From Candidatus Omnitrophota bacterium (GTDB taxonomy: Bacteria; Omnitrophota; Gorgyraeia; Zapsychrales; Zapsychraceae): DNA of 64,000 nucleotides. Positions 6,653 through 59,266 of this stretch are shown here, piece by piece (the first letter of the stretch is position 1; the number at the start of each line of letters is the position of its first letter). The stretch is from contig JAJDCA010000015.1 of assembly GCA_029261055.1 (NCBI GenBank), positions 19,998 to 83,997 on the forward strand, written 5' to 3'. The position numbers and the translations under genes are program-made. The notes under the pieces are model-generated. The model made no database searches. It saw only the letters and a list, made by a program, of their open reading frames with translations, and was not told the origin of the DNA.

Positions 6653-7734
6653 ACCGCAAGATCTCCATTATTCCTTGGATCATGATATTTTTCTTTTAAT
6701 TCTTGAATTTGTGAAGAAATTTCCATAAAGGCCTCTAGCAATTTTGAATCAAAATGCGTTCCGCCACCTTTCTGGATTTCTTCTATGGCTTCCTCACTAG
6801 ACCAGGCTTTCTTATAGGGCCGTGCACTCGTTAAGGCGTCAAAGACATCACATAAACCGCATATGCGTCCTACCAAAGGAATGGCTTCACCTTTAAGCCC
6901 CCCTGGATATCCTGTCCCATCCCATTTTTCATGATGTGTTAAAGCAATTTCTTGGGCGATTTTAAGAAATTCAGAATCACTTCCGTCCAACAATTCAGCT
7001 CCGATGGTTGTATGCGTCTTCATGATCTCCCATTCATTCTCCGTAAGTTTTCCCGGCTTTTGAAGAATACTGTCTGGAATTCCTATTTTACCAATATCAT
7101 GAAGAGGACTGGCTGTTAAAATCATTTCACACTCTTGACCGCTTAAGCCTACTTTTTTCGCAAGACATTCTGAATAATGACTCATCCGAATAATATGCAT
7201 TCCTGTTTCAGAATCACGATATTCTACAGCCCGTGCTAAACGCTGAATAACATCCACTTGTGATTCATAAAGTTTTTGTGTACGATCCTTCACTCTTTGT
7301 TCTAAAACCTTATTTTGATCTTGGATTTCATTATGCAGCATCCGAACCTCAATCATATTCTTAATCCGGATAAGAACTTCTACGCGATCGTAAGGTTTGT
7401 TAAGAAAATCTTTTGCCCCGGACTCAAGCGCACGAAACCGAACTTCCTGATTCTGCTCATCCGATATGACAATAATAGGAAGATACGTATCCCCATCAAT
7501 TTCCTTCAACTGCTCCATAATTTGAAAACCATCCAGATGGGGCATTGTCAAATCTAAAATCAACACTTCTGGTCTAATTTCTTGATAAAGCGCTTTAACC
7601 TGGCGAGGATCCGTTGTTAAGGTAATATTTGTAAAGCCATCTTTTTTTAAAATGGCTTCCAATAGACGAATGCTAATATCTTGATCGTCTACAACAAGTA
7701 TTTTGGCTTGTAAAAGTTTATCCCCATTCATCAC
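6649..7734 (-). CDS. Response regulator: CheY-like receiver plus HD-GYP c-di-GMP phosphodiesterase (RpfG-like).
   Basis: N-terminal receiver (ILVVDDQDISIRLLEAIL...LILDLTMPHLDG). C-terminal HD-GYP motifs (HDIGKIGIPDSIL, HHEKWDGTGYPGGLKGEAIP). Confidence 0.85.
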   Translation of the reverse strand: MMNGDKLLQAKILVVDDQDISIRLLEAILKKDGFTNITLTTDPRQVKALYQEIRPEVLILDLTMPHLDGFQIMEQLKEIDGDTYLPIIVISDEQNQEVRFRALESGAKDFLNKPYDRVEVLIRIKNMIEVRMLHNEIQDQNKVLEQRVKDRTQKLYESQVDVIQRLARAVEYRDSETGMHIIRMSHYSECLAKKVGLSGQECEMILTASPLHDIGKIGIPDSILQKPGKLTENEWEIMKTHTTIGAELLDGSDSEFLKIAQEIALTHHEKWDGTGYPGGLKGEAIPLVGRICGLCDVFDALTSARPYKKAWSSEEAIEEIQKGGGTHFDSKLLEAFMEISSQIQELKEKYHDPRNNGDLAV

Positions 7735-21293: not shown

Positions 21294-22859
21294 ATGAAAA
21301 AAATATTTTATTCACTCACATTTATATTAACGCTGTCATTTGCTATAACAGCACAAGCTGAACAGCTTCAGCTTACAACCTACTATCCTGCTCCTTATGG
21401 AGCATACGACAAGCTACTTCTGGTTCCACGCACCCCTTTGAGCGGTAGCTGCCAGACAGGTACGCTTTATATGGAAGACATAGGTAATGGCGATGGAGAA
21501 ATAAGACTTTGTGATAAAGGAATCTGGGCTCCTATTTCAGGCCATTGGAAGCAAGAAAACGATGATATCTTTTTAGTCGATACAGCAACAAACCCTGATT
21601 TATTTGTAGGTATTGGAACCACTAATCCAGGTGCTCGCCTTTCGGTACAAGGCTACGGGAACAGCGCAACAACAGCCAGTCTCAATATGACAAACAGTGA
21701 TGGAAACAGCATACTGTATGCCAGAGATGACAGAAATGTCGGCATTGGAACAACCAACCCTTCAGCGAATTTAGATATTAATAACAATGGCGACCTTACA
21801 GGGGATCCTCTTGGCAGTAATTTATGGTTTCGCCTTTCCGGTGGATCCACCATTGATCACGGACGTATTTGGGCTCAATATTCCAACACTCAAGCTCCTA
21901 TTCTCGTTATGGAAGATGATGACGACCCTTCACGCATTCAATTTCAACAGGTAGGTACAGGCACAGAGTCAACGCCAGAGTTTGTCAGCTGGGTCGGTAT
22001 GGGGAAAAAGAATTCCAGTGACATTGCCCTTATGGGAGGAAAAGTCGGTATCGGTACCACTGACCCTTTAAGTAATCTGCACATCAAAGCGCCTTCGCCA
22101 TCTATAATTTTAGAAAGAGAAGATAATGCCCAAGCAGCTGCTCTAGCATTTTTTCCTAATGGGGCTATTTCCCCTACAAACATGTATTGGGCCATGGGGC
22201 TCAATCTAAATAGTAACCATTTTGTTATCGCTAATGATAGCAACACATCCTTTCCTAACAACATAAGATTTACCATTAAAGATGACGGTAAAGTCGCTAT
22301 GGGAGGAAATCATATTCCCCAAACTGATCTGCATATAAAGGGAAATGGTGTGCTTAGATTAGAAGATACTAGCGTAGCAATAGACTTCATAAATGAGAAT
22401 TCTGGTGACGATAATTTTAGTATTGCTTCTTGGGGCGGAAGTAAAGATATGCTCAGATTTCGATCTAACAAAGATGGAACTTGGGACGATATTGTCCAGT
22501 TTGAAAGTGATGGCGATGTATGGGTCGAAGATGATGTAACGGCCGATGAATACAAAACACATTCTGACGTTCGCCTTAAAAAAAATATCCTACCACTGAC
22601 AGACGCGCTCTCACGTGTGACACAGCTCCGTGGTGTTAACTACCAATGGAGAGATACCGATAAAGATCAAGGAAAAATTCAAATGGGTCTCATCGCTCAG
22701 GAAGTAGAAGAAGTATTTCCTGAAGTCGTTTCAACTGACGAAGACGGATTCAAATCTGTAGCCTATAGTAAACTTGTTGCTGCTTTGATCGAAGCTGTTA
22801 AAGAATTAAAAGCAGAAAATGATGATCTTAAATTGAGGATTGAGAAAATAGAAAAATAA
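21294..22859 (+). CDS. Secreted fibre/adhesin-like protein with IGTTxP-type repeats and a C-terminal S74 intramolecular-chaperone auto-processing domain (phage tail-spike type).
   Basis: Signal peptide MKKIFYSLTFILTLSFAITAQA. Repeated (V/I)GIGTT(N/D)P motifs. The C-terminal ~125 aa (HSDVRLKKNILPL...GLIAQEVEEVFPEVV...LIEAVKELKAENDDLKL) match the conserved core of the peptidase S74 chaperone domain, spanning roughly 22485..22856. Confidence 0.65.
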   Translation: MKKIFYSLTFILTLSFAITAQAEQLQLTTYYPAPYGAYDKLLLVPRTPLSGSCQTGTLYMEDIGNGDGEIRLCDKGIWAPISGHWKQENDDIFLVDTATNPDLFVGIGTTNPGARLSVQGYGNSATTASLNMTNSDGNSILYARDDRNVGIGTTNPSANLDINNNGDLTGDPLGSNLWFRLSGGSTIDHGRIWAQYSNTQAPILVMEDDDDPSRIQFQQVGTGTESTPEFVSWVGMGKKNSSDIALMGGKVGIGTTDPLSNLHIKAPSPSIILEREDNAQAAALAFFPNGAISPTNMYWAMGLNLNSNHFVIANDSNTSFPNNIRFTIKDDGKVAMGGNHIPQTDLHIKGNGVLRLEDTSVAIDFINENSGDDNFSIASWGGSKDMLRFRSNKDGTWDDIVQFESDGDVWVEDDVTADEYKTHSDVRLKKNILPLTDALSRVTQLRGVNYQWRDTDKDQGKIQMGLIAQEVEEVFPEVVSTDEDGFKSVAYSKLVAALIEAVKELKAENDDLKLRIEKIEK

Positions 22860-22886
22860 TAAATACTTTATAATAAAGGATATCTC

Positions 22887-24023
22887 ATGAAAAAAATATG
22901 TTATGTATTTATACTTACCCTGCTAACAGGATTCTCTCAAGCAGCCGTTGCTGAACAGCTTCAACTCACAACGTATTACCCTGCCCCTTATGGAGCCTAC
23001 GACAAACTCATTCTGGTTCCACGTACCCCTTTGAGCGGTAGCTGCCAAACAGGGACACTTTACATGGAAGATGTTGGGAATGGCGATGGGGAAATGCGAC
23101 TCTGTGATAAAGGAATTTGGGCTCCTATGACAGGACAATGGATTCAAAAAAAGGATGATGTCTTTTTAATTGATACCGAAACAAACCCTGATTTATTTGT
23201 AGGTATCGGAACAACTGACCCAAGTGCCCGCCTTTCGGTAGAAGGTTACGGAAATAATGCGACAACAACTAGCCTTAATGTAACAAATGGTGATGGATCA
23301 AGCATACTTTATGCCAGAGATGATGGCAATATTGGTATCGGAACAACATCCCCCGAATCAGCATTACACGTAAAAGGTGGTGGCGATATATACACAGAAG
23401 GATGGAGTTCTGGAATAAATTTCATCAGTAGTCAACCAGCTACTGTCTCTACCTTTGCCATCAAAACTCACGTACCGGATGGAGACCAACTGCGCATCCG
23501 AAGCAATCCAAATAGATTGAACGGGGCATCCTGGCGTGACCTTGTTAGCATTACAGGCAGCGGCAATGTCGGTATCGGAACAACAAACCCTCAGTCATCA
23601 TTACAAATAGGCGGTGGTATCCAGTTTAATGCTAATGCGGATTGGCGGAATGTAGAACCTGATGTCCATTTCGACTCTAGCGCTTCTATTGCTGCCGGTT
23701 ATAGTTTGTATAACATTATCAATGGAAATAACACTGCCCCAAATTCCGTATTTATCATTGGAACAAACAGCCTAACCACGGGCGGGGCTAATTATAGAGA
23801 ACTCATGCGTGTTAAAACAAACGGTAATGTCGGTATCGGAACAAAATATCCGACACAAAAACTACACATCAACAGCGTCATGCGGTTGGAGCCTAGAAAT
23901 AACAAACCTTTTAATTGTAATAAAAATGAAATAGGTTCTATTTACTACAAAAAGAATAAAGAATTGCGTTTATGTACTAGAGACGGTAGCGACTATAAAT
24001 GGAGAAAACTTAAACTTGATTAA
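22887..24023 (+). CDS. Paralogous secreted fibre-like protein. It has the same N-terminal ~150 aa but lacks the S74 domain and has a Cys-motif C-terminal tip.
   Basis: Its N-terminus is about 80% identical to that of the previous gene (AEQLQLTTYYPAPYGAYDKL(L/I)LVPRTPLSGSCQTGTLYMED). The C-terminus, ...NCNKNEIGSIYYKKNKELRLCTRDGSDYKW, repeats the N-terminal C-x-LY-x-RLC-x-G-x-W motif. Confidence 0.55.
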   Translation: MKKICYVFILTLLTGFSQAAVAEQLQLTTYYPAPYGAYDKLILVPRTPLSGSCQTGTLYMEDVGNGDGEMRLCDKGIWAPMTGQWIQKKDDVFLIDTETNPDLFVGIGTTDPSARLSVEGYGNNATTTSLNVTNGDGSSILYARDDGNIGIGTTSPESALHVKGGGDIYTEGWSSGINFISSQPATVSTFAIKTHVPDGDQLRIRSNPNRLNGASWRDLVSITGSGNVGIGTTNPQSSLQIGGGIQFNANADWRNVEPDVHFDSSASIAAGYSLYNIINGNNTAPNSVFIIGTNSLTTGGANYRELMRVKTNGNVGIGTKYPTQKLHINSVMRLEPRNNKPFNCNKNEIGSIYYKKNKELRLCTRDGSDYKWRKLKLD

Positions 24024-24053
24024 GAGTTGTCCAAGTTATTTTTGGACAATCTC

Positions 24054-24470
24054 TTAAATTAACCCGGGGATAAGCCCCTTAATAGCCTTTTTGAGATAAT
24101 CTCTTTCATAAACATCCTGATCAATTACTTTATCATTCCACACCACAATATCTAAATCCATCGTCCGTGGACCATATTTTTTTTCTCCATGCTTTCGCCC
24201 TAATTGTGATTCAATTATTTTGAGGGCGTCATTTAAAGCATCCAATTCAAATTCGGTTTCTAATAAAACAGCACCGTTGAGAAAATCTGGTTGATCTTGA
24301 AAAGGACCTACGGGGTGGGTTTTTATAAAACGGGATTCGGCGAGGACATGAAACTCTTTAGAAAGAATTTCTCTGGCTCTGGGGATATTGCACTCCGGTT
24401 CAATGTTCGAACCAAGGCCAACCACAACTCTATTCACCGCTACTGACCTCCACCGAAACAGAATCAGCAA
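24054..24470 (-). CDS. folK: 2-amino-4-hydroxy-6-hydroxymethyldihydropteridine pyrophosphokinase (HPPK).
   Basis: VVGLGSNIEP and KYGPRTMDLDIVVWND motifs. Confidence 0.8.
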   Translation of the reverse strand: MLILFRWRSVAVNRVVVGLGSNIEPECNIPRAREILSKEFHVLAESRFIKTHPVGPFQDQPDFLNGAVLLETEFELDALNDALKIIESQLGRKHGEKKYGPRTMDLDIVVWNDKVIDQDVYERDYLKKAIKGLIPGLI

Positions 24471-24780
24471 AGCGTAAAGCTTGAGGTTTGTCTACACGAA
24501 CAGTGGCTTGTTTAACAAGAGGGCTTTCCGTTGCAATCTTTAAAATTTGATCCGCCAACTTCTCTAAAAGAAAAAATGCCGAAGCCTCAACTTTTTTAAT
24601 AATCTTTTTTGTAATCGCCTTGTAATCCACCGTATCTTTTATATCATCGCTGGCCGCTGCTTTGGTTGCATCATAATCGATGGTTACATTGATCACCACA
24701 TCTTGCTTGGCATCACGTTCCCAGTCATGAATGCCGATGATCGCACGAAGTTTTAAATTTGTAATACGTATTTTTGCCAT
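24430..24780 (-). CDS. folB: Dihydroneopterin aldolase.
   Basis: 116 aa. MAKIRITNLKLRAIIGIHDWERDAKQDVVINVTIDYD is a typical FolB N-terminus. Confidence 0.8.
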   Translation of the reverse strand: MAKIRITNLKLRAIIGIHDWERDAKQDVVINVTIDYDATKAAASDDIKDTVDYKAITKKIIKKVEASAFFLLEKLADQILKIATESPLVKQATVRVDKPQALRFADSVSVEVSSGE

Positions 24781-25499
24781 TATATTAAATGCTCCCCTCC
24801 ATCAACAAAAATTACTTGTCCCGTCACATAATCATTTTCTAGAAAAAATTGAATCGCCTGCGTAACATGTTTTGTTTGTCCTTTTTTACGCAAAGGAATA
24901 CGTTTAGCTAAACGTTCCAAATAATCATTCTTCTGACCAGACGGCGGTAAAATCAATCCCGGCGCAACAGCATTGACACGAATCTGCGGCGCTAAAGCCA
25001 CGGCGGCCTGTTGTGTCATAGCATGCAAGGCCTTTTTAGATAAAAGATACGTATTGTACTGCGTCTGGTTTTTAGTAATATTCGTATCTAAAATATTAAT
25101 AACCTGTCCCTTTTTGCAGCGATGTACAAATGCGTTTGTTAAAATGCATGGTGCCTTAAAGTTGACAGCAAAATGTTGATCGAGACTCTGCGTCTCGTCG
25201 ACCCTTAAACTAGATTTCTCAAAAATCGAGGCATTGTTAATCAAAACATTTACCCTTTTCATTTTCTTAACAACACTTTCAACAAGCGCCCCTGATTGTT
25301 CTTCTACGGCAAAATCACTTTGAAAAATCTGACAAACCCCGCCTTTATTTTGAATGTATTGCGCTGTTTTTTCAGCCTCTCGTTTGGAGTGATTATACTG
25401 AAGCGCTATGGCGTAGCCGGATGAGGCTAAATCAAGACATATGGCTTTACCTATGCGTTTGGCTCCGCCTGTAACTAAAGCTGTCCCTCTAGAAATCAC
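24780..25499 (-). CDS. Short-chain dehydrogenase/reductase. Context suggests a pteridine reductase of the FolM/PTR1/PruA type.
   Basis: Rossmann fold TGGAKRIGKAI, an SDR catalytic YxxxK, and a position between folE and folB-folK. Confidence 0.55.
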   Translation of the reverse strand: MISRGTALVTGGAKRIGKAICLDLASSGYAIALQYNHSKREAEKTAQYIQNKGGVCQIFQSDFAVEEQSGALVESVVKKMKRVNVLINNASIFEKSSLRVDETQSLDQHFAVNFKAPCILTNAFVHRCKKGQVINILDTNITKNQTQYNTYLLSKKALHAMTQQAAVALAPQIRVNAVAPGLILPPSGQKNDYLERLAKRIPLRKKGQTKHVTQAIQFFLENDYVTGQVIFVDGGEHLI

Positions 25500-25547
25500 G
25501 CCAAAACCTCATATTAGCGGATGGCCCAAAGGGATAATTTTGCGTTC

Positions 25548-26087
25548 TCATCGAATTAAACTCAAAAACTCAGACCGTGTAGAATTTTCTCTGCGGAAGG
25601 CGCCAAGCATGCAGGATGTTTTCATACTAGAATTTTGTTTCTCAACACCGCGCATCATCATGCACAAATGTTTGGCTTCAATAACCACACCTACCCCTTT
25701 GGCTCCAGTCTGCTCCATCAATGTCTCGGCAATTTGTTTGGTGAGATTTTCCTGAACCTGAAGCCGTCGGCCAAAAACATCTACAATGCGTGCTACTTTG
25801 GATAGACCAATAATTTTCCCATTAGGTAAATACCCGACGTGACATTTTCCAAAAAATGGCAACAGATGATGCTCACATAAAGAATACAGTTCTATATCTT
25901 TCACAATAATCAGCTCATCGTTATCGGAATCAAAAATCGCATTATTAACAACCTTTTGTACATCTTCTCTGTATCCATTGGTCAAATATTCAAAGGCCTT
26001 GGCCGCACGCTTTGGTGTATCTTTTAGTCCATCACGGTCCACATCTTCACCGATAGATTGAATAAGATTTTTATAAAATTTTTCCAC
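25548..26087 (-). CDS. folE: GTP cyclohydrolase I.
   Basis: [46 protein letters not shown] is the FolE signature. Confidence 0.9.
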
Positions 26088-27266
26088 TTAGATTGTACCT
26101 TTCTCAAATATTTCTTTCATAGCCTGAGCAACAATAGGATTAAATTGTGTTCCGGATTTATTTTCAATTTCTTCCATAGCAATTTCTTTTTTTAAACCCT
26201 TACGATACGGCCTGTCAGATGTCATGGCATCAAACGTATCCGCCACAGAAATAATCGCGGCTGATATGGGAATACCTGCGCCTTGTAGTGCTTCAGGGTA
26301 ACCGGCTCCATCAAAACTTTCGTGATGATACTTAATACCATCCAAACATTCTTTAGGCAATGAAAGAGGTTTAACAATTTCTACCCCTTTGATCGTGTGT
26401 TGCTTCATAATAATATACTCATCATTGGTGAGTTTACCACGTTTATTTAATATCACCTCGGGAACGCCTATTTTTCCAATATCATGTAAAAGGCCGGCAA
26501 TATATAAATTTTCAAAAAATCCTTTCTCAAACTCAGCAGAACCATTGACGACCATTTGATGCGCAATGTCCACGGCATATTTTGTTACACGCGCGGTATG
26601 CCCATGCGTGTAGGCATCCTTTGCCTCAATGGTTGAACCTAAAACAACAATGGTTTGAATAAAAAGTTCATGATTACGATCCGCCTCTTTTTTTAAACTA
26701 TCAAAAAGCTGGGCATTACGAATGGCCATAGCAGCATCTGACGCCAAAGCACTAAAAAAATCTAATTCATCTTGTTCAAAACTTGTCTCATCAAATTTCT
26801 CGCCTAATAAAAGAACCACCAAAAGATCGCCATGATAATACGCAGGAACACAGGCAACCGAATTAAGCGTTTGCATTTGTTTCTCGACCTTATGCAAAAG
26901 ATCTTTTGTTCCGTTACCATTCTCGATCACACTTTCTTTCCAAATCAAGCGATGGATATCTTGTGAGACAAGGGCACTGCGGTCGAGCGTAAGACATTTA
27001 AATTCTTTTTCTCTGAAAACTTTTATTATGGGACTTTTTTTATCAAAGCGGGTAAAACCAGATGGGATTTTGTGACCTGTTTCTCCTCGAGAAATATCTA
27101 AAAAGTAGGCGTCTTCATTGGGATCAAAAAGAATCATCGCCGCATGCCGAAGCCCCAGCTTACGTACGATCATACGAACAATAAGCTTAATAAGCAGCTT
27201 CGGGTCATGAATCATAATCATGCCTTTGCTGGCAGTCTCAAGCTCTTTCTTATAATCAATCTTCAT
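26088..27266 (-). CDS. GAF-domain sensor fused to an HD-GYP c-di-GMP phosphodiesterase.
   Basis: The N-terminal ~200 aa are GAF-like. The C-terminus carries HDIGKIGVPEVIL and HHESFDGAGYPEAL motifs. The stop abuts the folE start. Confidence 0.8.
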   Translation of the reverse strand: MKIDYKKELETASKGMIMIHDPKLLIKLIVRMIVRKLGLRHAAMILFDPNEDAYFLDISRGETGHKIPSGFTRFDKKSPIIKVFREKEFKCLTLDRSALVSQDIHRLIWKESVIENGNGTKDLLHKVEKQMQTLNSVACVPAYYHGDLLVVLLLGEKFDETSFEQDELDFFSALASDAAMAIRNAQLFDSLKKEADRNHELFIQTIVVLGSTIEAKDAYTHGHTARVTKYAVDIAHQMVVNGSAEFEKGFFENLYIAGLLHDIGKIGVPEVILNKRGKLTNDEYIIMKQHTIKGVEIVKPLSLPKECLDGIKYHHESFDGAGYPEALQGAGIPISAAIISVADTFDAMTSDRPYRKGLKKEIAMEEIENKSGTQFNPIVAQAMKEIFEKGTI

Positions 27267-27269
27267 GCT

Positions 27270-27668
27270 TTATTTAATCTTCAACTCAGCCATCACAATT
27301 TCTTCTAACTCTTCTAAAATTAACGGCTTGTGAACGTATCCTTTAATGCCCCAACTGTTAGCTTCACTCACCACTTCCTCTTCTTCATTACCCGTCACCA
27401 TAATGACGGCCACGTCATTTTTATTTTCTCTGAGCTTTTTCAACACATCAAGCCCTGACATTGTGCCCATGTTAACATCCAAAAGAACCAAATCCGGATT
27501 TTCCTGGTCGATAAGCCTTAAGGCATCCTCCCCATTTCCAGCAGAAAAAACATCAATATCACGTTTACTAAAAAAATTCTTAGCAAATTCACGTGTATCT
27601 ACTTCATCTTCAACAATTAAAAGCTTCGGCATTTTCCCCTCCTTCTTACGCATTTTCTGCACCAACAA
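27270..27668 (-). CDS. Single-domain CheY-like response regulator.
   Basis: LLIVEDEVDTREFAKNFF...LVLLDVNMGTMSGLDVLKKL is a receiver domain. Confidence 0.8.
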   Translation of the reverse strand: MLVQKMRKKEGKMPKLLIVEDEVDTREFAKNFFSKRDIDVFSAGNGEDALRLIDQENPDLVLLDVNMGTMSGLDVLKKLRENKNDVAVIMVTGNEEEEVVSEANSWGIKGYVHKPLILEELEEIVMAELKIK

Positions 27669-27780
27669 AAGGTATTCTACCTCGAGGCCTAAAAATATAC
27701 AACAGTAAGTGCGATTTTCTTTGGAGGAAAAAGTTTAATAGACTTTACTTCGATATAATCGAAGATTTGGAGCTGCTCAC

Positions 27781-28128
27781 TTAAAACTGCATACCCAGCT
27801 TAATACCGGCTTCGGTGGATTCATTTTCAGGTTCAAGGCCGGTAACGACGTATACAGAGGATAAGGCTGTAGAAAGTTCAGAATCGTCAATATGCCAAAA
27901 ACGAATAAAGGCCTCTATTGACCAATTAAACTGATCTCCTAAACGGACGAGCTCAATAGCTCCTCGAGCACCATAACCTTCATTTTGAGTATTCTCAAGA
28001 TCCGGAAATAAACTTGAAGCATCGGAGAGGTGCCTGCTTTTTTTCTTATTCAATTCATTTTGTGAGAAACGGTACGTTTTATTTGTATATCGCTTTTTTC
28101 CTGTGGGTGTATTTATTTTATTGTGCAT
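27781..28128 (-). pseudogene. Probable C-terminal remnant of an outer-membrane beta-barrel protein.
   Basis: It ends ...AGIKLGMQF, a beta-barrel terminal signature with a C-terminal Phe. There is no signal peptide. It is a short ORF at the low-GC edge of the Rhs island. Confidence 0.3.
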
Positions 28129-28244
28129 TGAAAATCATTGGGGTGGCTAACGCGTCTAATTTTTTGATAACTGATATTTTCTCGCATAACTCGGCAGGAT
28201 ACTCTTTTTCTGAGGATGGATTTGTTTTGTCAGTTATTGGGGAT

Positions 28245-28853
28245 TCATGGGTTGGATACACTGTCTGTATTTTTAAAATTAAATTGACTAATATTGACTT
28301 TATTTGATAAGTTTTTATCAATATTCTTTTTTCTTAATTTAATGTTAACCGCAGAGTCTGTTAAATCCTTATAATTCGGATGCTCAGGCCCTTCTAATAG
28401 ATGTTTTCGACTATTATTCTTGTCCTCATCAAAATATCGATTGTTTTTTATTAAAATATCCTCAGTCGAAGTGTTTAGAAGACTGTCATTCAAAGATAAA
28501 CGATTAGGGGTATATATTTTCAACCAACACAAATAAACTATAAGAATCAATATAAGTGGAAAAGCCAAATAATTTCGTCTATATAAAAAAACTGCAATAA
28601 TCAATAACCAAAATCCCATAATAATTGGAATTACAAAAGAAAGTTTGTATTCTATGTCTGCAATCCTTGATATATCATCATTGAAATAACTTTCGCTGAC
28701 TAACTGATTTACATAATTATTTATAATTTTTTCTTTATGAAAAACAATGTATAACCCCTTATACATCATTATCAAAGCCCCACATAAAAAAAGGACGGTT
28801 AAAATGATAAATATTTTTTTTACTTTTAGATTTTTATCTCTTTCAATTATCAT
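28245..28853 (-). CDS. Small very AT-rich membrane protein. Candidate immunity protein for the orphan Rhs C-terminal toxin.
   Basis: 202 aa with 3-4 TM helices. It lies 86 bp downstream of the orphan toxin ORF and is strikingly lower in GC than its neighbours. Confidence 0.4.
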   Translation of the reverse strand: MIIERDKNLKVKKIFIILTVLFLCGALIMMYKGLYIVFHKEKIINNYVNQLVSESYFNDDISRIADIEYKLSFVIPIIMGFWLLIIAVFLYRRNYLAFPLILILIVYLCWLKIYTPNRLSLNDSLLNTSTEDILIKNNRYFDEDKNNSRKHLLEGPEHPNYKDLTDSAVNIKLRKKNIDKNLSNKVNISQFNFKNTDSVSNP

Positions 28854-28939
28854 TGCTTATTCCTTTTTACTTAAACCTTCTTCTGATGTTTAAAACTCCA
28901 AGGCTCAAAAAATCGATGCGATAATTTAATAGCATAACT

Positions 28940-30382
28940 TTATTGACCATAAATATAGTTTGTAGTGTTGGTAATATCCTCAAAAAATCCTAATATATTC
29001 ATCCTATTTACTATTGTAGGATCATGGTGGATAATATTAATTTGTCTATAAGACTTAGGAACTATTACATTTACTGTTAAAACATTTCTATTGACTATTG
29101 AAACATGAGTATCTCCTGGTTCTCCAGTAAGATGATCCATAAAATAAAACTCTCTTGTAAATGTTTCAGTTTTTAAATATGGAACAATTTGTTCTGTCAT
29201 CTCAGGAAATCTAAAATTGATCTGTTCCGCTAATATACCATCAACTTCCTTCCCATTCAATCTCACATAAGCATCAACTTTAGACACAAATTCCTCTGGA
29301 TTATTTGAACTATTTGCAGACTGAAGAATCTCTGTTCTTCCAACTTTGCCTTCTTTAGCAGCTTTAGCAAGACGAGCAGATTCTATTTTGTTTGCAGCTG
29401 CTTGGATCCCTGTTACAGCCAAATACCCTGCCGCTGCAAAAATAGCTCCTTGCCCAGCACCAGCACCAAAACTTCCTCCCGTTAATACAGAACCGACACC
29501 TCCTGCAACAGCCCCACTCGCCGCTGCTCCAATAAATCCTCCAAGTGAGCCTCCGACTAAATCTCCTATACCGGCACCAATACTTGCTGTTAATATGCCT
29601 ATACCTGCAGATTTTGCAAAATCACCCCAACTCCCATCATACAGCATTGTATTGTAAGCCGCGCTAGCTATAGCACCCAAAACCGGATTAATAAACGATA
29701 ATGTAATACCTATAACGACACCTTTGTACTTATCAGGAACAAAAGGTAATAATATTTTACCAGCAATTTTAAAGAGCTTCTTCCAAAACCCAAAACCATC
29801 GGGGTCAATATTATTTACAGGGTTATTTCCTGCGTAGTGATATCTATTGAACGTAATTGAACTAGTAGAATTCTGTACTGTAGGGTCAGCCGTAATAAAT
29901 CTACCAAGAGACGGATCATAATACCTCGCCCCATAGTAATAGAGCCCCGTCTCTTCATCCAATGGTTTGCCGGTGAAATAGTAGTTGGCGACTGACTCAC
30001 ATGAGGGATCGTCAATTGGGCAGTATTTATCTTGTTTTGAATACCCCCCGAATGGCTTGTATTCGTAGACTTCCCTCTTAGCGCCTGTATCATCCGTTAA
30101 GACATTCGTTCCACCGAGGTGGTCGTTGTGATAATAAAGGATCTTATCACCTGACACTGAGGCAATACGTGTACCGCCAAAGAAAATATAATTCGTCGAG
30201 CGACCGTTGGTTTCTTCGTACAAGGAACCGACATAAATTGTTTCAGTAACCGTCGTACTACTGGAACTGGTACTCCCGCTATCAAAGAACATTTTATTAT
30301 GGACCAAATACCCACCCGCGAAATAATTGTGATGTTGGTCGACTTCGATATTATACACACGCACAGCAGGCTGTTGATACAT
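28940..30382 (-). CDS. Orphan Rhs C-terminal cassette: the last ~15 residues of a Hint domain, then the Rhs core end (DPDGF), a glycine-zipper segment and a unique ~130-aa C-terminal toxin tip.
   Basis: AVRVYNIEVDQHHNYFAGGYLVHNK...YYHNDHLGGTNVLTDD...YYGARYYDPSLGRFITADP...NNIDPDGF is homologous to the corresponding segment of the 2,903-aa Rhs protein at about 75% nucleotide identity. The C-terminal 130 aa are unrelated. Confidence 0.75.
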   Translation of the reverse strand: MYQQPAVRVYNIEVDQHHNYFAGGYLVHNKMFFDSGSTSSSSTTVTETIYVGSLYEETNGRSTNYIFFGGTRIASVSGDKILYYHNDHLGGTNVLTDDTGAKREVYEYKPFGGYSKQDKYCPIDDPSCESVANYYFTGKPLDEETGLYYYGARYYDPSLGRFITADPTVQNSTSSITFNRYHYAGNNPVNNIDPDGFGFWKKLFKIAGKILLPFVPDKYKGVVIGITLSFINPVLGAIASAAYNTMLYDGSWGDFAKSAGIGILTASIGAGIGDLVGGSLGGFIGAAASGAVAGGVGSVLTGGSFGAGAGQGAIFAAAGYLAVTGIQAAANKIESARLAKAAKEGKVGRTEILQSANSSNNPEEFVSKVDAYVRLNGKEVDGILAEQINFRFPEMTEQIVPYLKTETFTREFYFMDHLTGEPGDTHVSIVNRNVLTVNVIVPKSYRQINIIHHDPTIVNRMNILGFFEDITNTTNYIYGQ

Positions 30383-30467
30383 CTAAACCTTTACCTTGTT
30401 CAATTTCAACTTCTCGTAATTTAATGATGATTTCTTCCGGCTTGTACCTTTTTCCCATTTTTAACCC
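30383..30467 (-). mobile_element. Remnant of an IS3-family OrfA N-terminus, out of frame and fused to the start of the orphan Rhs cassette.
   Basis: The minus-strand translation MGKRYKPEEIIIKLREVEIEQGKGL resembles an IS3/IS911-type OrfA start. It abuts the exact point where homology to the main Rhs gene begins. Confidence 0.4.
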
Positions 30468-30835
30468 CTTTCTGTTGCCTCATTCTATCACAAAAAGTGG
30501 ATCAACTTCTGGGGGGTGGGTCAGGGCCTCGTTTAGACACGGGACTATCATTAATTATATTTAAAACAATTTTCTTCTGATTCTTAATCAAGAATAATCC
30601 TAATACAAAAAATACTAAAAATAAAAATATATGTTTCATAATTAAACGCGTAACACTTACTTATCATAATATACATTATGATAAGTCAATTCTTTGACAA
30701 CCAATATTATCGTATTTTTAAATTAGTCAGGTGGGAATTCACATTACCAAATTCTCATTATAACGAAAAAAGTGTATCTTAACCTTTTCCAAAATACAGT
30801 CTTAATTCGGTAATGGGACTTTTTTGGGGATAATT

Positions 30836-31336
30836 CTACACACCTTTAATTTGGCTTCCATTACGATCAGAATTAAACGCGTAACATTTAGCAAAAGAAC
30901 GTGTAATTAAAAATAACGAAAAACCAAATATCAGCACTTCAAAATAAGGTATATACTGCATTGATGAAGTATCAATAATATGAACGTTGCTTTCCCTTAG
31001 ATTTGCAGGAATTTCAGGGAGAAGGAAATAATTAATCCAAAAGATAACGACACTCCAAATTGAAAAAATTAACTTCAAAATTAAGGCCCATTTTAGTACA
31101 AGTGAACTCCAGGTTCGGCTAAAGAGCAAACCCATTCCACCAAGAATAAAGAGCATTGGAATTATCGCGGAATAAATAATACTCGCCATTTGAAAATTCC
31201 ATCCATGCAAATTAATAAGACTTTTTAAATTTGAAAAAATAAAAATTAAAGAATGATAATTTTCTTTGAATTGGACAACGCCATAGAGTAACGCTAACAT
31301 GGAAAAAATTTTTATTAATTTTATTTTTTTAACCAT
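30836..31336 (-). CDS. Small multi-TM membrane protein. Candidate immunity protein for the main Rhs C-terminal toxin.
   Basis: 166 aa with 4 TM segments. Its start is 10 bp downstream of the Rhs stop. AT-rich. Confidence 0.45.
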   Translation of the reverse strand: MVKKIKLIKIFSMLALLYGVVQFKENYHSLIFIFSNLKSLINLHGWNFQMASIIYSAIIPMLFILGGMGLLFSRTWSSLVLKWALILKLIFSIWSVVIFWINYFLLPEIPANLRESNVHIIDTSSMQYIPYFEVLIFGFSLFLITRSFAKCYAFNSDRNGSQIKGV

Positions 31337-31345
31337 AAAGACTCC

Positions 31346-34300
31346 TTATCTCTGCAACACACGCCCTCCTAGAAGACGCCCTTCAGTTATCGGAGATGTT
31401 CGCTGTGAAATATTTCCATTTCTAAAATTTGTTTGCTGAATCCATGCTGATCCTACATCTAATTCATTCCATGTCCTAGTAAAACTTTTTGTATTACCAA
31501 AATATGTTTTAAAATGGCCATTTTGTCTATATGTAGTTTCTCTGTGGTATTCTGCACGATATATTCCAGCGCTCAATGATGTTAATCCGGGGGCTTGAAT
31601 TGTCCCAACATTTTTCCAATTTCCGACTTTAACTGTTTGAATGTGAGAATCTCCAACCCAACTGCCGATGACATTATAAAATTTATGTACAATCAATTCA
31701 TATTTTTTATTCAAATACCCTCCAGGATGAAATGAATCATTTGCAACAAATCCTATGGCGGCTGATACACCACCTAATTTTGCTCCGTCTCCAAAATTAC
31801 CTCCGGTTACTGAGGAAAGGCTTCCACCGATAACGGCCCCTACAATCGAACGACGAGCAAAATTTCCTGAAAATTGAGAAAAAGTATCATTAGTCGTTGT
31901 TTGTAGAAATGGTATCCTTTGCCCGGCTAATTGCGCAACCCCTGCACTCACTCCGCCTATTAAGGCGCTTATTCCTGGGTCGCCACCTAAAATTGTTGTA
32001 TTAATCCCTCCTGATATTGCGCCGCCTATCGTATGCGCAGAAATCTGGGCTGAGCCACTTAATCCTAAATCACCTATGCCTCCAAATATCAACCCACTTA
32101 TAGCTCCCGTTAGAAATCCATCTCCTATATCCCCACCTGTTGCCGCAGCTGTGGCGCCTCCAATGAGAGATCCAAAGAATGCACTTTTAAATAAACCCGC
32201 AAAAAAACTAAAGAGTGCAAAGTTTCCACTGGGATCAACCAAATTAATCGGATTATTATGGACGTAAGTATACCTATTAAATGTTTGTGGATTTTCAGGA
32301 TACGGCACAATTGTATCTGACGTTATAAATCTTCCAATAGATGGATCGTAATAGCGGGCTCCGTAGTAATATAACCCTGCTTCATCGTCGAAGGGTTTCC
32401 CGGTAAAATAGTACAACGCTGTTTCCTGATCATTACCATATTTTTCATGTGTGGCAAAACCACCGTATGGTAGGTACTCGATGAGTTCCTTCTTAGTTCC
32501 TGTATCATCTGTGAGAATATTGGTGCCGCCTAAATGGTCGGAGTGGTAGTATAAAACTTTGTTCCAGGAAACAGAGGCAATTCTTGTATCACCAAGAAAG
32601 ATGTATTGGATTGGACGATTATTGGTTTCCTCGTACATCGTTCCGATATAGATGGTTTCGGTCGTTGTGCTTGTGTCATTTGAAGTCATGTTAAAGAATG
32701 ACATTTTGTTGTGGACAAGATACCCACCGGCAAAGTAGTTGTGATGCTGGTCGACTTCGATGTTATATACCCTTACCGCGGATTGTGTGGTAATTTTTTC
32801 GATTTTTTCAATACTCGCATCCGTTAGATCTAGGCTCAGAAGTTTATCTTCAACAGATAGCTTGCCAATTTCACGCCATTCTCCTTGTGAATAGAATTGG
32901 TGATTGTCCGTCACACGTAAAGTATCATTAATGATTAAATATTCATCAGCAAATTCTCCATTAAAGAAATTCGTCACTGTTGATATAACCTTCTCTCCTG
33001 TACGCTCATTAAAACTCATAACAGCATCACCGATTTGTATCTCTTCAATCGATTTTGTACGCCCATCCGCCATCAAAACAGGTGTTCCTGCTAGAAAACA
33101 CGTGTTATTTCCTGATGGTGTTCCATGCCCGACACCATTTTCAAATGTTACTTTCTTCGTACGTCCTCCATCACCATCATATTTATATTGGGCAATAAGC
33201 ACCCCTGCCTTTTTTACTTCTGTCAGAAGGTTTCCAATATCATAGGTATAATTGATACTGACACCATTTTTAATCTTTGCTGTCATATTACCGTTGGCAT
33301 CATAGGTATAGATCTCGGTGGTGGCACCATCCGTCCGCGATGTCACTGCATGCGGGCCAGCACTGTTTTGACCGTAGGTATATGTAAACCCATCTTTCTG
33401 AATAATATTCCCGATGGTATCATAGGAATACGTCTTGGTGCCGTACGCTTCCCCTACGGCTTGCGTCAAACGACTTAAGGCGTCGTATTGGAAATTTTGT
33501 GTGGCCGTATGGATATTATCAACAATAGACCCCACATTACCCACTGCATCATAAGTATATGAAAAATCTTGTAAAACGCTATTATCTGTACTACTTGTTT
33601 TTACTTGTAGTAACCGTAAATTTAATGGATCGTAGGTATTGCTGGTTATGACACCATTGCCATATTCAATTTGTGTGATCTGCCCATTAACATTATATTT
33701 TATATTTCTTACAAATGAAGTTGATGCAATAGTTCCTGCCACTACATCAATATTTACTACAGCCACATTACTATCTAATTTTCCATCGTTTACCTTAAAA
33801 ATAAAATTATCTTTACCAAGATAATCTACATTTGGTGTATACATTAATTCGGGCGCTGTTCCTGATATTTTGCCATTCGTTGGGAATGTTACAATACTAT
33901 ATGTTAATACATCGTTATCTGCATCATTGCCAGTTAATGTAATAGGTAAAGTACCATTCATATTAATGGTTAAACTGCTTTGATCATTAGCGACTGGAGG
34001 CTCATTGGTTTGAGGTGGACTTACTAATTGAATTATGTCAGAAATTTCACTGGAGCTTAGAGCATCATTGTATACACGCACATCGTCAATACTGCCTTTA
34101 AAATAAATTCCATTACGTCTACCATTAAAAATATCTGCTTCTGAACCATCGCCAATATAGCCATACCGAGTTACGCCGTTCCCAAGTTTCACATTAGTGC
34201 TATAAGCATCACTTTGACTGTCTAGTACACCATCAACATAAATCTTTTTATCATTAACTTGACTAGCATCAAACACCCCGCACACATGATGCCATTGGCC

Positions 34301-37300
34301 GTCATCGACTCGGACGGAACTCGCCATATCATGAATCGCACTTCCCTCACCTCGTGTATCCCAAGAGATTTTACCGATATCTTCTGGTGCATTATGAAAG
34401 TTAATCCCCAATGACCAATACTCACTTCGATCATAATCTACTATTGTTTGTCGTGAAGAAGAACTTGTATTGATCCACGCACAGGTTGTTATTTTATTAA
34501 TTTCCCCAGCAACATTGTAACTTAGATTATTTATCGCTACATAATCGTTCGTGCCATCAAAATCTAATCCATTATTAATTTTTCCAGAAACCCAAGCAGC
34601 ATTCGTCATATTAAACAACGTGCCATTATTTCCATTTCCTGTTGCATCATTAGCATTATTCCCACTTGTTTCATCAAAATTCCAATGACCTATGAATGTA
34701 TTAATTGATGTAGTTGTTAATACATCTAATCTGATTTTTACTACATTACTATCTGCCGTGCCATCATTCACCTTAAATGTAAAACTGTCTGCTCCTACAT
34801 AATTCAAATTTGAACTATATATTAAATTTGGAGCTACTCCTGATAAACTTCCATTCGTTGGTTGAGTTATTACAACATACGTTAATGTATCTCCATCTGC
34901 ATCACCACCTGTTAGTGTTATAGCTAAATCTGTGCCTTGATTGGTTGTCAATCCATTCTGACTATTTGCCGTTGGCGCTGTATTATCTGGTGACACTATT
35001 TTAAAGCTCACCGCTGTTTCTGATTTAAAAGAATCGTTAAAAAGTATTCTCACTTCGTAATCCCCGGGAGGTAATCCAGAGTCAAATGCAATTCTCCCAT
35101 TGATAATTCCTGTGGTGCCGGTTTTTGTTCCATCTGTATAATACCATCCCAAGTTACTAGTATTCGCTGATCCAGCAGAAAACAACCCTATCCAGTCACT
35201 TGAATTCGCTAAAGCATTAAAAAAAGTCACTGTGATGGCCTCATTAGGGGCATATGTAGTTTTATTGATAAAAAGTAATGGCGGGTTTGCTCCAACGATA
35301 AAAGATTCTTTTGATTCTACTTCAAAAGAATTATTAGAAAACATTCTTGTCTCATATACACCATCAACGTTTAATCCATTATTAATTTTCGTAGAAACCT
35401 GATCAGTATTCGTCATATTAAACAACGTACCATTATTCCCATTTCCTGTCGTATCGGCAGCATTGTTCCCACTTGTTTCATCGATTTGTCTCTGAGCAAT
35501 GTAATCCTCTATGCTAGAAGGTGGTATGATATTATCACTAGGCCCAAAAGATGGAATATATCCAGGTGCAGCATTGAAAATATTACGATTTACAATGCGA
35601 AGATTATCCATACTCCCATTTAAATTTTCATAACTACCTCCATGAGGCCCTTCCCCAATGTAAAGCCCTCCCATATAATTAAACGTATTTTCAGTCTGCC
35701 GATACCCCGTCTGTTTACCATCTAAATAAAGTCCATATTTATCCCCCACTTTAACTAAAGCTACATGATGCCATTCATTATCAGTAATTTTGCCACCTTG
35801 TACGGAAATAATACGGTTAAAATTTATTTCTGCAGAAAATTCTAATTTATCGCGGTGCCCCAATTGCCATTCATTTGAACTATTAGATTTATGAACCACA
35901 TAATAATTTGGACTTACAAGGTCTCTATGCTTAACCCAGAGGTCAATGGTCCAGTCTTGAATGGGTGATGCAACAATATCCCAGTCAGGACTATCATCAA
36001 TGTGTAGAAAAGTTTTACTATTAAATGAAAGGCTAGTGCCTGAGAATTTTCCATCTGTAAAATCTAATTCTGGATTCTTATGCGGTATTATTGTGTGCCT
36101 CTTAGATGTATCCGTAAGCGCTGCGTCTATATTTTGCCCATCAAAAAGTAAAAGCAATTTTGTTTCTGGAAACAAAGGAACGGGTGGAGGTTGCGGGGTA
36201 GCATTTCTTTGATTCGAAGTTGGACCATCCACTTGCCCATTATATGCGGAAACCACAAAATAATACGTTGTCCCATTATTTACTTCAGCAACAACAAAAT
36301 TCGTTGTATTCCCAACATCGATTATATTTATCTTATTATTCTCAGAAGTTCCGTATTTAATTTTATAGCCTTCTGCATTATTGACACTGGTCCAACCCAA
36401 GCTTATATTTTTATCCCTACCAACAGAAACATTCAATGTTGGTGCATCTAAAACTATTGTGTTTACTTCATTTGAATTTTGACTTTCTGTTTGAATATCA
36501 TACGCTATAACTACAAAATAGTACGTAAGTCCGCCACTTAACCCAGTAACATTAAAGCTATGGACATTACCTACATCAATTATTTTTATATAACTTCCTT
36601 TGGAGGTTCCGTATTTAATTTTATAGCCTTCTGCATTATCGACACTGGTCCAATCTAAGCTAACGCCCTGATTTTCTACAACTACGGTATTCAAAACTGG
36701 AGGATCTATTATAGGTGGTGCTGGTATGATTTGTTGATTAGAAATTTCTACTACCTGTCCCGCAGCATTATATCCATAATACATATTTTTTGTATTTGGA
36801 TACTGTATTTTTACAATCGAATTTAGTGCATCATAATCTCGTTGGACATTATAAGCCTGATTATTAATTTTTTTTATTGATTGAATTTCTCTCCCCAAAG
36901 GATCATATATAAACTGAACATCACCTTTAGTATAATCGGCTTGTGTTAACTTTCCTTTTGAATGAGACACAGATGCATCATCATAGGTATAATTAACATC
37001 CAGATCTCCTCCATCCGTCTTATTTACAAGGCGATTTAAAGCATCGTAGGTAAATGTAATCTTTTGTCCTTTGGCGTCCATTTGTTCAATAAGGTTGCCG
37101 TTAAGATCATACTCGTACGTCCAAATCCCCATGTCTGGATCATCCATTTTTATTTTACGCCCAAGTTTGTCATATGTAATGTTGGTCGTATTACCCTGTT
37201 GATCTTGTGTTTGGATTAAATTACCAGAGATATCATAGGTATACTGTGTGGTCGCATAGAGAGTAAAAGGTTCCATGGGATAAAAATTTGAATCACGCCC

Positions 37301-58866: not shown

Positions 58867-59198
58867 TTTAAATTATTAAAATACCATAATATCGCAAAAA
58901 AATATGGATGTCACCCATTTTTTCAACCATTTTAAATTAATTCTATCATTATGCAACGCATATAGTTACAATTATTTCAGGATTTTTCTTGTTTTTAAAG
59001 AATTGTAATTGTTTGGCCTCTATGAACTTATGATTTTTTCGATAAATTTGTTTTTTCTTGATAAATATGTTATTTTTTGATTAGGTGCAAAAGAAAGCGG
59101 TTTTTTGCATTGAAAATCTTTAAAACCACGCCAATAATCCCGCCTACCAGCAGGCAGGCACGCCACGGATTGGTGAAATTTCATAAAGTTAAGTGTAG

Positions 59199-59246: not shown

Positions 59247-59266
59247 CTATAAATTGGAGAAAAAAA

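Follow-up and report, generated by a model that had tools for sequence, protein, structure and literature searches.

Pterin biosynthesis genes adjoining a receiver and GAF-HD-GYP gene pair in an Omnitrophota genome: two separately conserved gene sets likely joined in one lineage

In the window, that is, the whole 64-kb stretch of Omnitrophota DNA analysed here, a four-gene pterin cassette directly follows the genes for a receiver and a GAF-HD-GYP phosphodiesterase. We consider it likely that these are two independent gene sets, each conserved separately in the Omnitrophota, that were joined in this one lineage. Since the two sets occur together only in this genome among the loci compared, their linkage is best understood as a local rearrangement and not as a pterin-sensing system.

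Organization of the gene cluster

Six open reading frames, all on the minus strand, occupy positions 24054-27668, as given in the initial annotation. They and the non-coding features at either end are:

27633..27780, minus strand: non-coding stretch upstream of REC, 148 nt (sequence)
27270..27632, minus strand: CheY-like receiver (REC), single-domain, 120 aa (Pfam Response_reg, 101.8 bits)
26088..27266, minus strand: predicted soluble GAF-HD-GYP phosphodiesterase, 392 aa (Pfam, motifs, AlphaFold/Foldseek)
25548..26087, minus strand: GTP cyclohydrolase I (FolE), 179 aa (TIGR00063; GTG start right after the HD-GYP stop)
24780..25499, minus strand: predicted SDR-family pteridine reductase, PruA/FolM-like, 239 aa (motifs, identity, tree, NCBIfam)
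24430..24780, minus strand: FolB-fold protein nearest FolX, 116 aa (NCBIfam, PDB, identity)
24054..24437, minus strand: short HPPK (FolK-like), 127 aa (Pfam HPPK, TIGR01498)
24020..24057, no strand assigned: hairpin where the HPPK gene and the gene at 22887-24023 converge (RNA fold)

In gene order from REC to HPPK, the gaps read from the sequence are 3 nt (REC/HD-GYP), 0 nt (HD-GYP/folE), 48 nt (folE/SDR), -1 nt (SDR/FolX-like) and -8 nt (FolX-like/HPPK), the last two being overlaps. The stop codon of the HD-GYP gene abuts the start codon of folE (TAA/GTG), and the ends of both genes are intact at this junction. A consensus terminator scan found no minus-strand terminator inside the cluster. 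The hairpin after the HPPK gene has a folding energy of -16.8 kcal/mol (z = -4.2), which none of 200 shuffles equalled; it is absent from the list of the consensus scan because it lacks a U-tract, and it probably represents the end of the transcription unit. The 148-nt stretch upstream of REC is the only intergenic space 5' of the six genes that is able to hold a promoter, and the promoter presumably lies there. No site in this stretch passed the criteria of the promoter scan, the overall counts of which were not above those in shuffled sequences.

The initial annotation had described six contiguous or overlapping minus-strand genes, with the HD-GYP stop abutting folE and with neither folP nor folC present. 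The reading frames and spacing agree with this description, and no folP, folC or folA gene was found within the 64-kb window. The single operon that it proposed is probably one transcription unit, as suggested by the close packing of the genes, the lack of an internal terminator in the scan and the hairpin after the HPPK gene. Its gene names stand for the receiver, GAF-HD-GYP, folE and the SDR, whereas “folB” is FolX-like and “folK” encodes a short HPPK.

The receiver and the GAF-HD-GYP protein

The mechanical ORF of the receiver reaches a TTG at 27668, but the start codon is probably the ATG at 27632, which has a putative ribosome-binding site, AAGGAGG, 5 nt upstream. The homologs are 119-121 aa long, and their genes are always located directly upstream of the HD-GYP gene. 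The residues read from the sequence include the acid pocket (EDE), the Asp in LLDVNM, the Thr in MVTG and the Lys in HKP.

The GAF-HD-GYP protein scores 112.5 bits against HD_5, 72.1 bits against HD and 26.5 bits against GAF (cut-off 22.4) in Pfam. It has the H...HD...H...HH...D metal ligands and the GYP motif of the family, and residues E214, H223, H261-D262, H290, H314-H315, D343 and G322-Y323-P324 are invariant in 18 homologs. The AlphaFold model (pLDDT 82.6) contains no membrane helix and suggests a soluble protein with two domains, similar to PmGH. Its fold matches are 4mcw, 9rbz and 4r8z, and the N-terminal 190 residues contain a GAF fold, with Foldseek matches to 3oov, 3k2n, 3eea and 5w10. 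The protein is predicted to be an active phosphodiesterase of the trinuclear-metal type, and its candidate substrate is a cyclic dinucleotide, probably c-di-GMP.

The best full-length fold match is PmGH from Persephonella marina (4mcw). The two proteins share the two-domain architecture of a GAF-like and an HD-GYP domain as well as all metal ligands, among them the additional Glu that is found in trinuclear sites. In Leptospira, LIC_11189 is a REC-GAF-HD-GYP response regulator (PMC12943098), and the same three domains appear to form one signalling unit here, with REC encoded by a separate gene. The best PDB sequence match of the GAF-HD-GYP protein is, however, the 3'3'-cGAMP-specific HD-GYP protein V-cGAP3 (5z7c, 115.4 bits, as compared to 111.4 bits for PmGH 4mcw), and the neighborhood in this genome lacks the cognate kinase.

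The pterin cassette

FolE is identified by family models (GTP_cyclohydroI 256 bits; TIGR00063 255.9 bits, cut-off 181.6), and its length and N-terminus are the same as in FolE from the related loci L094 and L098.

The SDR protein (Pfam adh_short_C2, 128.7 bits) contains TGGAKRIG (TGX3RXG) at residue 10 and YLLSK (YX3K) at residue 151. Both motifs are present in all eight Omnitrophota homologs, while the FabG controls have TGX3GXG. The identity is 39% to the Brucella PruA-type enzyme 5tgd and 25% to each of FolM and FabG from E. coli, and in a neighbor-joining tree the protein groups with the Brucella enzyme and E. coli FolM, apart from FabG. Its best NCBIfam family is NF006597 (248 bits, cut-off 281), against which 5tgd itself scores 427 bits, followed by the pteridine reductase family NF006598 (198 bits, cut-off 288), FolM NF005066 (134.5 bits, cut-off 249) and Leishmania PTR1 TIGR02685 (119 bits, cut-off 321.7). 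All four pteridine reductase models are thus below their cut-offs, with the top two 60-110 bits above the generic SDR models. The motifs, the match to NF006597 and the placement in the tree support the original assignment to the FolM/PruA type, and we regard the protein, on sequence grounds, as a predicted pteridine reductase of this kind.

FolX is a dihydroneopterin triphosphate 2'-epimerase. The product of the gene originally named “folB” scores 114 bits against the FolB-fold Pfam family, 149.5 bits against FolX (NF008418, cut-off 152) and 86.8 bits against FolB (TIGR00525, cut-off 72.15). In the PDB, it matches FolX (1b9l) with 102.6 bits and FolB (2o90) with 55.5 bits, and it is 52.7% identical to E. 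coli FolX and 30.5% identical to E. coli FolB. By these comparisons, FolX is its nearer relative, and the protein is a candidate epimerase or aldolase.

For the HPPK, the mechanical ORF reaches a TTG at 24470; all homologs are 127 aa long, and the start is probably the GTG at 24437. The protein scores 81.9 bits against Pfam HPPK and 80.7 bits against TIGR01498 (cut-off 54.1), and it is 39.6% identical to E. coli FolK. The segment GR..GPRTMDLDI aligns with GR..GPRTLDLDI in E. coli HPPK, for which we take the functional residues to be the Mg-binding DxD and the loop-3 arginines. The window protein and all four Omnitrophota homologs share a deletion of eight residues (E. coli TERLTVPH) and lack the C-terminal tail. 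The ATP-binding segment of the protein is incomplete, as the deletion covers approximately residues 108-115 in E. coli (including R110, T112 and H115).

Clusters of folM-like genes with folate genes of the pterin branch (folE, folB/folX, folK) have already been described, in a paper that also lists species in which FolM is accompanied by two FolK entries (Xylella, Shewanella; de Crecy-Lagard et al. 2007, PMC1971073). As in those clusters, FolE, a TGX3RXG reductase, a FolB/FolX-fold enzyme and an HPPK are encoded together here. However, the reductase is nearer to the alphaproteobacterial PruA group than to E. coli FolM, the HPPK is short with an 8-residue deletion, and the phylum is Omnitrophota. 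The candidate end product is a folate precursor or tetrahydromonapterin, the latter being the product of the FolX/FolM pathway in E. coli and Pseudomonas (Pribat et al. 2010, as cited in PMC13259868).

A second comparison concerns the Chlamydiae. As in Chlamydia CT614, the FolX-like gene in the window is located directly upstream of the HPPK gene, but there is no folP fusion and there are no folA or folC neighbors. The window also encodes a pteridine reductase, which is missing in Chlamydia trachomatis. Both phyla, Omnitrophota and Chlamydiae, are members of the PVC group. CT614 is annotated as FolX, acts as FolB and adjoins folKP (PMC4161248).

Gene neighborhoods in related genomes

About 22 Omnitrophota-type GAF-HD-GYP loci were compared, ten of which (L082-L091) encode seven proteins with 65-74% identity to the HD-GYP protein of the window. 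In these ten, the gene order is a 7TM/GAF histidine kinase, REC and GAF-HD-GYP, followed by variable, unrelated genes. The REC-HD-GYP pair is kept without fol genes in the more distant loci L002-L013, and fol genes were found near HD-GYP in none of the 22 related loci.

The cassette was compared across seven SDR-carrying loci (L092-L096, L098 and L099). A divergent PHP gene precedes folE, the SDR, the FolB-fold and the HPPK (127 aa) genes in L092-L096 and L098, while L099 begins at the SDR gene, with the upstream side out of view. Downstream of the cassette are fabG-acpP-fabF in L092-L096, with leuB-asd further away in L092, L093, L095 and L096, and genes for FxsA and DPBB proteins in L098 and L099. 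An HD-GYP gene is located near the fol cassette in none of the seven loci (0/7).

Among the loci compared, the two units are adjacent only in the window and in the duplicate contig L001. Just upstream of REC lie a giant RHS gene that encodes a PT-HINT domain and an orphan RHS C-terminal cassette, and a transposase gene is also present in the flanks. No histidine kinase, PHP, fabG or fabF gene was found in the window. The nearest relatives in this small sample of neighborhoods are 74% (HD-GYP) and 63% (SDR) identical, and sister genomes with the same arrangement could exist. The adjacency of HD-GYP and folE is not above chance expectation: of about 40 genes in the window, two encode HD-GYP proteins, and the pairing is absent from every related locus examined.

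Origin of the arrangement and alternative explanations

The first of the two sets would form the output side of a two-component module and would resemble the known REC-GAF-HD-GYP response regulators divided over separate proteins. A kinase would phosphorylate REC, and REC together with whatever the GAF domain binds would control how a cyclic dinucleotide, probably c-di-GMP, is hydrolysed. The second would be the pterin cassette, whose four enzymes (FolE, the PruA/FolM-type reductase, the FolX-like protein and the short HPPK) may convert GTP into dihydroneopterin or dihydromonapterin derivatives, a tetrahydropterin and/or hydroxymethyldihydropterin diphosphate for folate. In the relatives, the cassette appears to be a housekeeping operon that is located beside fatty-acid synthesis genes and has a promoter region to itself, a context that points toward an ordinary folate or pterin pathway. 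In the window, it would have lost its upstream region and landed exactly after the HD-GYP stop codon, and its transcription would therefore most probably depend on read-through from the REC/HD-GYP unit. The RHS toxin array seems to have taken the place of the kinase side, and RHS-rich rearrangement is the most likely cause of the placement.

The TAA/GTG junction and the lost promoter region, which tie the cassette to the signalling operon, argue against a pure accident, and selection could have favored the arrangement. In one alternative reading, the cassette would have been captured into the REC/HD-GYP operon because joint expression of GTP-consuming pterin or folate synthesis and cyclic-dinucleotide turnover is useful, for example in a growth or lifestyle switch, with a link that is transcriptional only. 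This adaptive co-regulation without sensing would fit the absence of promoter space before folE, the translationally coupled spacing through the six genes and the scan's lack of internal terminators, and both pathways use the guanine nucleotide pool, according to the established biochemistry of FolE and diguanylate cyclases. It is nevertheless rather unlikely, given that the arrangement is seen in one genome only among the loci compared and that flanks rearranged by an RHS array and a transposase gene fit a neutral accident.

The initial annotation had suggested a pterin-responsive c-di-GMP module with the GAF domain as a possible sensor, by analogy to Agrobacterium tumefaciens, where c-di-GMP is under pterin-dependent control of PruA and PruR-DcpA (PMC4488946, PMC11194511, PMC13259868). 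The cassette would then make a reduced pterin, such as tetrahydromonapterin, that is sensed by GAF or REC and tunes c-di-GMP hydrolysis. The PruA-type SDR and the FolX-like enzyme make a monapterin branch plausible, the HD-GYP/folE coupling is at zero nucleotides, the ligand of the GAF domain is unassigned by Pfam or fold matches, and Proteobacteria have c-di-GMP enzymes that are controlled by pterins (same references). PruA is an SDR with TGX3RXG and YX3K motifs, and PruR is a secreted, periplasmic SUOX-like pterin binder of about 170 aa, the gene of which is located directly upstream of that of the c-di-GMP enzyme (PMC13259868). The window resembles this system in its PruA-type SDR, with both motifs, and in that the same genome encodes a c-di-GMP-type phosphodiesterase.

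The similarity does not extend to the sensor. No molybdopterin-oxidoreductase-type Pfam match, as would be expected for PruR, was obtained in the 41 window ORFs scanned, and the gene in the expected place of pruR, upstream of HD-GYP, is REC. Instead of a DcpA-type regulator, with a periplasmic WX7E domain, a membrane segment and GGDEF-EAL or sensor-kinase output, there is a soluble protein with only GAF and HD-GYP domains, and the window was found to encode neither a GGDEF-EAL protein nor a periplasmic or transmembrane sensor. Moreover, in Agrobacterium, pruR and dcpA form a linked two-gene operon, and pruA is not described within it (PMC13259868). A linkage between reductase and phosphodiesterase, which is what the window has and which is not conserved, is therefore not a signature of the Agrobacterium pathway. 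The GAF region is nearly invariant in relatives that lack a fol neighborhood, which gives no reason to think that it reads pterins; no pterin-binding GAF domain was found among the Foldseek matches or in the literature consulted. With the linkage found at none of the related loci of either set, a pterin-responsive module is very improbable, and we infer that any pterin-to-HD-GYP sensing is absent. Marginally less probable still is that the cytoplasmic GAF domain directly senses a pterin or another GTP-derived metabolite, with the cassette captured in the REC/HD-GYP operon so that the synthesis of reduced pterins or folate precursors comes under joint control with the hydrolysis of cyclic dinucleotides.

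Finally, a chimeric contig could have been suspected, as the window comes from a metagenome-assembled genome and the arrangement is unique among the loci compared, but an assembly artefact at the HD-GYP/folE junction was rejected as extremely unlikely, since the separately assembled Logan contig L001 (run SRR15505515) crosses the junction with 100% identity along 10,722 nt (window 25656-36377), both junction genes are intact and the base composition is uniform across it.

Implications

If true, pterin sensing would extend pterin-to-c-di-GMP signalling beyond the Proteobacteria, in a PruR-independent form with a new type of cytoplasmic sensor, but the comparative evidence does not support this reading. 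Adjacency in one genome, in RHS-rich rearranged regions, is no ground for inferring functional coupling. For the Omnitrophota, the comparison reveals a very highly conserved kinase-REC-GAF-HD-GYP module and a conserved four-gene pterin cassette with a putative PruA-like reductase, a FolX-like enzyme and an unusually short HPPK, which aids the annotation of genomes in this uncultured phylum.

Organization of the gene cluster

Six minus-strand open reading frames are present at 24054-27668, as in the initial annotation: a receiver gene (REC), a GAF-HD-GYP gene, and a cassette consisting of folE, an SDR gene, a gene for a FolB-fold protein and an HPPK gene. From the names that its homologs carry, the window is assigned to Candidatus Omnitrophota (Omnitrophica). 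The most likely start codon of the REC gene is the ATG at 27632, which is preceded by an AAGGAGG site and gives a predicted protein of 120 amino acids, matching its homologs. For the HPPK gene, the most likely start codon is the GTG at 24437, which gives a predicted protein of 127 amino acids, the length of every homolog.

Table. Spacing between neighboring genes in the cluster, from the sequence with corrected starts.
REC / HD-GYP: 3 nt
HD-GYP / folE: 0 nt (TAA then GTG)
folE / SDR: 48 nt
SDR / FolB-fold: 1-nt overlap
FolB-fold / HPPK: 8-nt overlap

Judging from this spacing, transcripts of the REC/HD-GYP unit very probably extend into the cassette, since non-coding space is absent upstream of folE. 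A consensus scan identified no minus-strand terminator within the cluster, and a hairpin (-16.8 kcal/mol, z = -4.2) separates the HPPK gene from the convergent downstream gene. The promoter scan yielded site counts no higher than those in shuffles, and no promoter is claimed; two matches in the 3' end of the HD-GYP gene were discounted as too near the folE start to be credible. The HD-GYP/folE junction is real, because a separately assembled Logan contig (L001, run SRR15505515) is 100% identical to the window across it over 10,722 nt, which rules out an assembly chimera.

The REC and GAF-HD-GYP proteins

The REC protein matches the Pfam domain Response_reg (101.8 bits), and the GAF-HD-GYP protein matches HD_5 (112.5 bits), HD (72.1 bits) and GAF (26.5 bits against a cut-off of 22.4). 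The latter contains a complete set of HD-GYP metal ligands and the GYP motif, every one of which is invariant in an alignment of 18 sequences. Its AlphaFold model (pLDDT 82.6) matches PmGH (4mcw), a GAF-like and HD-GYP enzyme, over the full length, and the N-terminal domain of the model matches GAF folds. The top PDB match in sequence is the cGAMP-specific HD-GYP protein 5z7c (115.4 bits), with PmGH close behind (111.4 bits), and the sequence does not decide between candidate substrates. Assignment to the NosR-family response-regulator phosphodiesterases (NF053512) was rejected, because the family cut-off of 400 bits lies above the scores obtained (115.7 and 54.2).

Hundreds of homologs share 65-74% identity with the GAF-HD-GYP protein, which is unusually conserved across Omnitrophota, residues 1 to approximately 36 being almost invariant. 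Together, the two proteins probably act like a split REC-GAF-HD-GYP response regulator. In Leptospira, REC-GAF-HD-GYP is known as one protein (PMC12943098), whereas the REC domain is encoded by a separate gene in the window. A second, REC-fused HD-GYP gene (6649-7734, minus strand; Response_reg 85.6 bits, HD_5 125.8 bits) is located directly upstream of surE, so that there are two HD-GYP genes within 64 kb.

The predicted enzymes of the pterin cassette

FolE is recognized by TIGR00063 (255.9 bits, cut-off 181.6). The SDR contains the motifs TGX3RXG (TGGAKRIG) and YX3K (YLLSK), which constitute the pteridine-reductase signature. Its identity to 5tgd, the PruA-type enzyme of Brucella, is 39%, compared with 25% for both FolM and FabG of E. 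coli. On a neighbor-joining tree, it joins 5tgd and then FolM, apart from FabG. Its top NCBIfam family is NF006597 (248 bits, below the cut-off of 281), of which 5tgd is a clear member (427 bits), and the Brucella enzyme belongs to the PruA group (PMC13259868). The motifs, the identity to 5tgd, the tree and the family match thus bear out the early guess that the SDR is a FolM/PruA-type pteridine reductase.

The gene first called folB does encode a protein with the FolB fold, which on sequence is better described as FolX-like, being 52.7% identical to FolX of E. coli versus 30.5% to FolB. Its score is below the cut-off of the FolX model (149.5 versus 152 bits) and above that of the FolB model (86.8 versus 72.15 bits). 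FolX and FolB share their chemistry. Moreover, a Chlamydia protein annotated as FolX functions as FolB (PMC4161248). For these two reasons, the activity of the FolX-like protein is not fixed by its sequence.

The product of the gene named folK belongs to the HPPK family (TIGR01498, 80.7 bits, cut-off 54.1) and retains the DxD motif and the loop-3 arginines. It lacks the eight residues equivalent to TERLTVPH in E. coli FolK, a segment of the ATP site, as well as a C-terminal stretch of approximately 22 residues. The deletion and the missing tail are common to all Omnitrophota homologs aligned, and the protein would be better named short HPPK.

Genes for the short HPPK (127 amino acids, predicted).
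Window: 24054-24437, minus strand
L092: 7085-7468
L093: 7170-7553
L095: 7186-7569
L098: 2669-3052

The cassette would produce the pterin precursor of folate, a tetrahydropterin (tetrahydromonapterin, for example), or both of these. [quoted passage not shown]

Conservation of the two gene neighborhoods

For seven GAF-HD-GYP homologs in the 65-74% identity range, ten loci (L082-L091) were inspected. The order histidine kinase (mostly 7TM and GAF), REC, GAF-HD-GYP was found in all nine loci with an informative upstream side; in L087, the contig end truncates the first gene, which has no Pfam match, and in L089 the REC gene lacked a gene call and was recovered by tblastn. The gene 3' of HD-GYP varies (an opposite-strand kinase, REC and cupin-HTH genes, a toxin-antitoxin pair, leuB fragments), and folE, the SDR, the FolB-fold gene and HPPK are absent from all ten loci. 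Among the matches listed in a scan of the genome collection with the HD-GYP alignment, identity was at most 48%; nearer homologs are not among them, and they represent a distant sample only. In 12 more distant Omnitrophota-type loci (L002-L013), the fol genes are consistently absent and a clear REC gene is located just upstream of HD-GYP in seven.

The SDR has many homologs at 52-63% identity, and the neighborhoods of four of them were inspected in seven loci (L092-L096, L098, L099). The order folE, SDR, FolB-fold, 127-aa HPPK is constant across all seven, with L099 beginning only with the SDR. Upstream of the cassette, wherever that side is visible (6/6 loci), there is a PHP-domain gene in divergent orientation. 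The cassette is followed by fabG-acpP-fabF in L092-L096, with leuB-asd further on in L092, L093, L095 and L096, and by FxsA and DPBB genes in L098 and L099. No HD-GYP gene was found near the cassette in the seven loci. When metagenome contigs were scanned with the SDR protein alone, the peptide patterns were too specific and gave one distant match (L097, 30% identity).

Among 99 loci, the two modules are adjacent only in the window and its duplicate L001, while folE is located 5.4 kb from an unrelated HD-GYP gene in one actinobacterial locus. The adjacency is thus a single-genome arrangement among these loci, in which the nearest HD-GYP relatives are 74% identical. Searches of the window for a histidine kinase, PHP, FxsA, fabG and fabF were all negative. 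The kinase has been lost from the REC/HD-GYP neighborhood in this genome.

Flanking regions

Directly upstream of REC there are two small ORFs, then an orphan RHS C-terminal cassette and the gene for an RHS protein of 2,903 aa, after which comes a transposase gene. The orphan cassette, which comes after the RHS protein with small ORFs alongside, repeats the HINT-end peptide YNIEVDQHHNYFAGGYLVHNKM.

Features in the regions flanking the cluster.
1-5856, minus strand: giant open frame past the window end, at least 1,952 aa
8532-14463: iron-uptake cluster (FTR1 permease, TonB, ExbD, ExbB, TonB-dependent receptor, Fur-family regulator)
21294-22859, plus strand: secreted protein ending in Peptidase_S74 (endosialidase chaperone), a domain characteristic of phage tail fibers
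22887-24023, plus strand: secreted protein, tandem paralog of the preceding
28940-40057, minus strand: RHS region; 2,903-aa protein with TcdB_toxin_midN, RHS repeats, Laminin_G_3 and PT-HINT
28940-30382: orphan RHS C-terminal cassette
40337-41617, minus strand: gene with an integrase core domain (rve_3), adjoining the RHS protein
59065-63999, plus strand: giant open frame past the window end, at least 1,645 aa

The rve_3 gene beside the RHS protein fits a rearranged region rich in mobile elements. In two related genomes, too, RHS-type genes occur no more than a few kb from the REC/HD-GYP module (L086, 11087-15194; L091, 9011-12157). The paralogous genes at 21294-24023, whose products have their first ~130 residues in common, are convergent with the HPPK gene. 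Neither giant frame at the window ends has a Pfam match. Over the first 6 kb of the window, the G+C content is low (0.35) and the AT skew is strong (-0.3).

Pterin signaling or juxtaposition of two units

The initial annotation had suggested that the cluster is a pterin-responsive c-di-GMP module comparable to the Agrobacterium pathway, with GAF as a possible sensor. That pathway consists of PruA, the periplasmic SUOX-like binder PruR, and DcpA with a periplasmic WX7E domain, the last two being encoded in a conserved operon of two genes (PMC13259868). The PruA-type reductase is the sole defining part found in the window, whereas PruR, a periplasmic or membrane part, GGDEF-EAL and conserved linkage are all lacking. 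Nor does the window contain folA, an aromatic amino acid hydroxylase or a SUOX/PruR-like protein, and folP and folC are absent from it, as had been stated. Furthermore, the sequence of the GAF domain hardly varies among relatives without the fol neighborhood; there is accordingly no indication that the domain senses pterins, and the proposed sensor role is not supported. With the linkage not conserved and the PruR and DcpA-type parts missing, we consider a pterin-responsive signaling module very improbable.

Most likely, two separately conserved units have been juxtaposed in one lineage. The juxtaposition would probably have occurred during rearrangements that also introduced the RHS array and eliminated the kinase gene. 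Both modules, taken singly, are of already known kinds.
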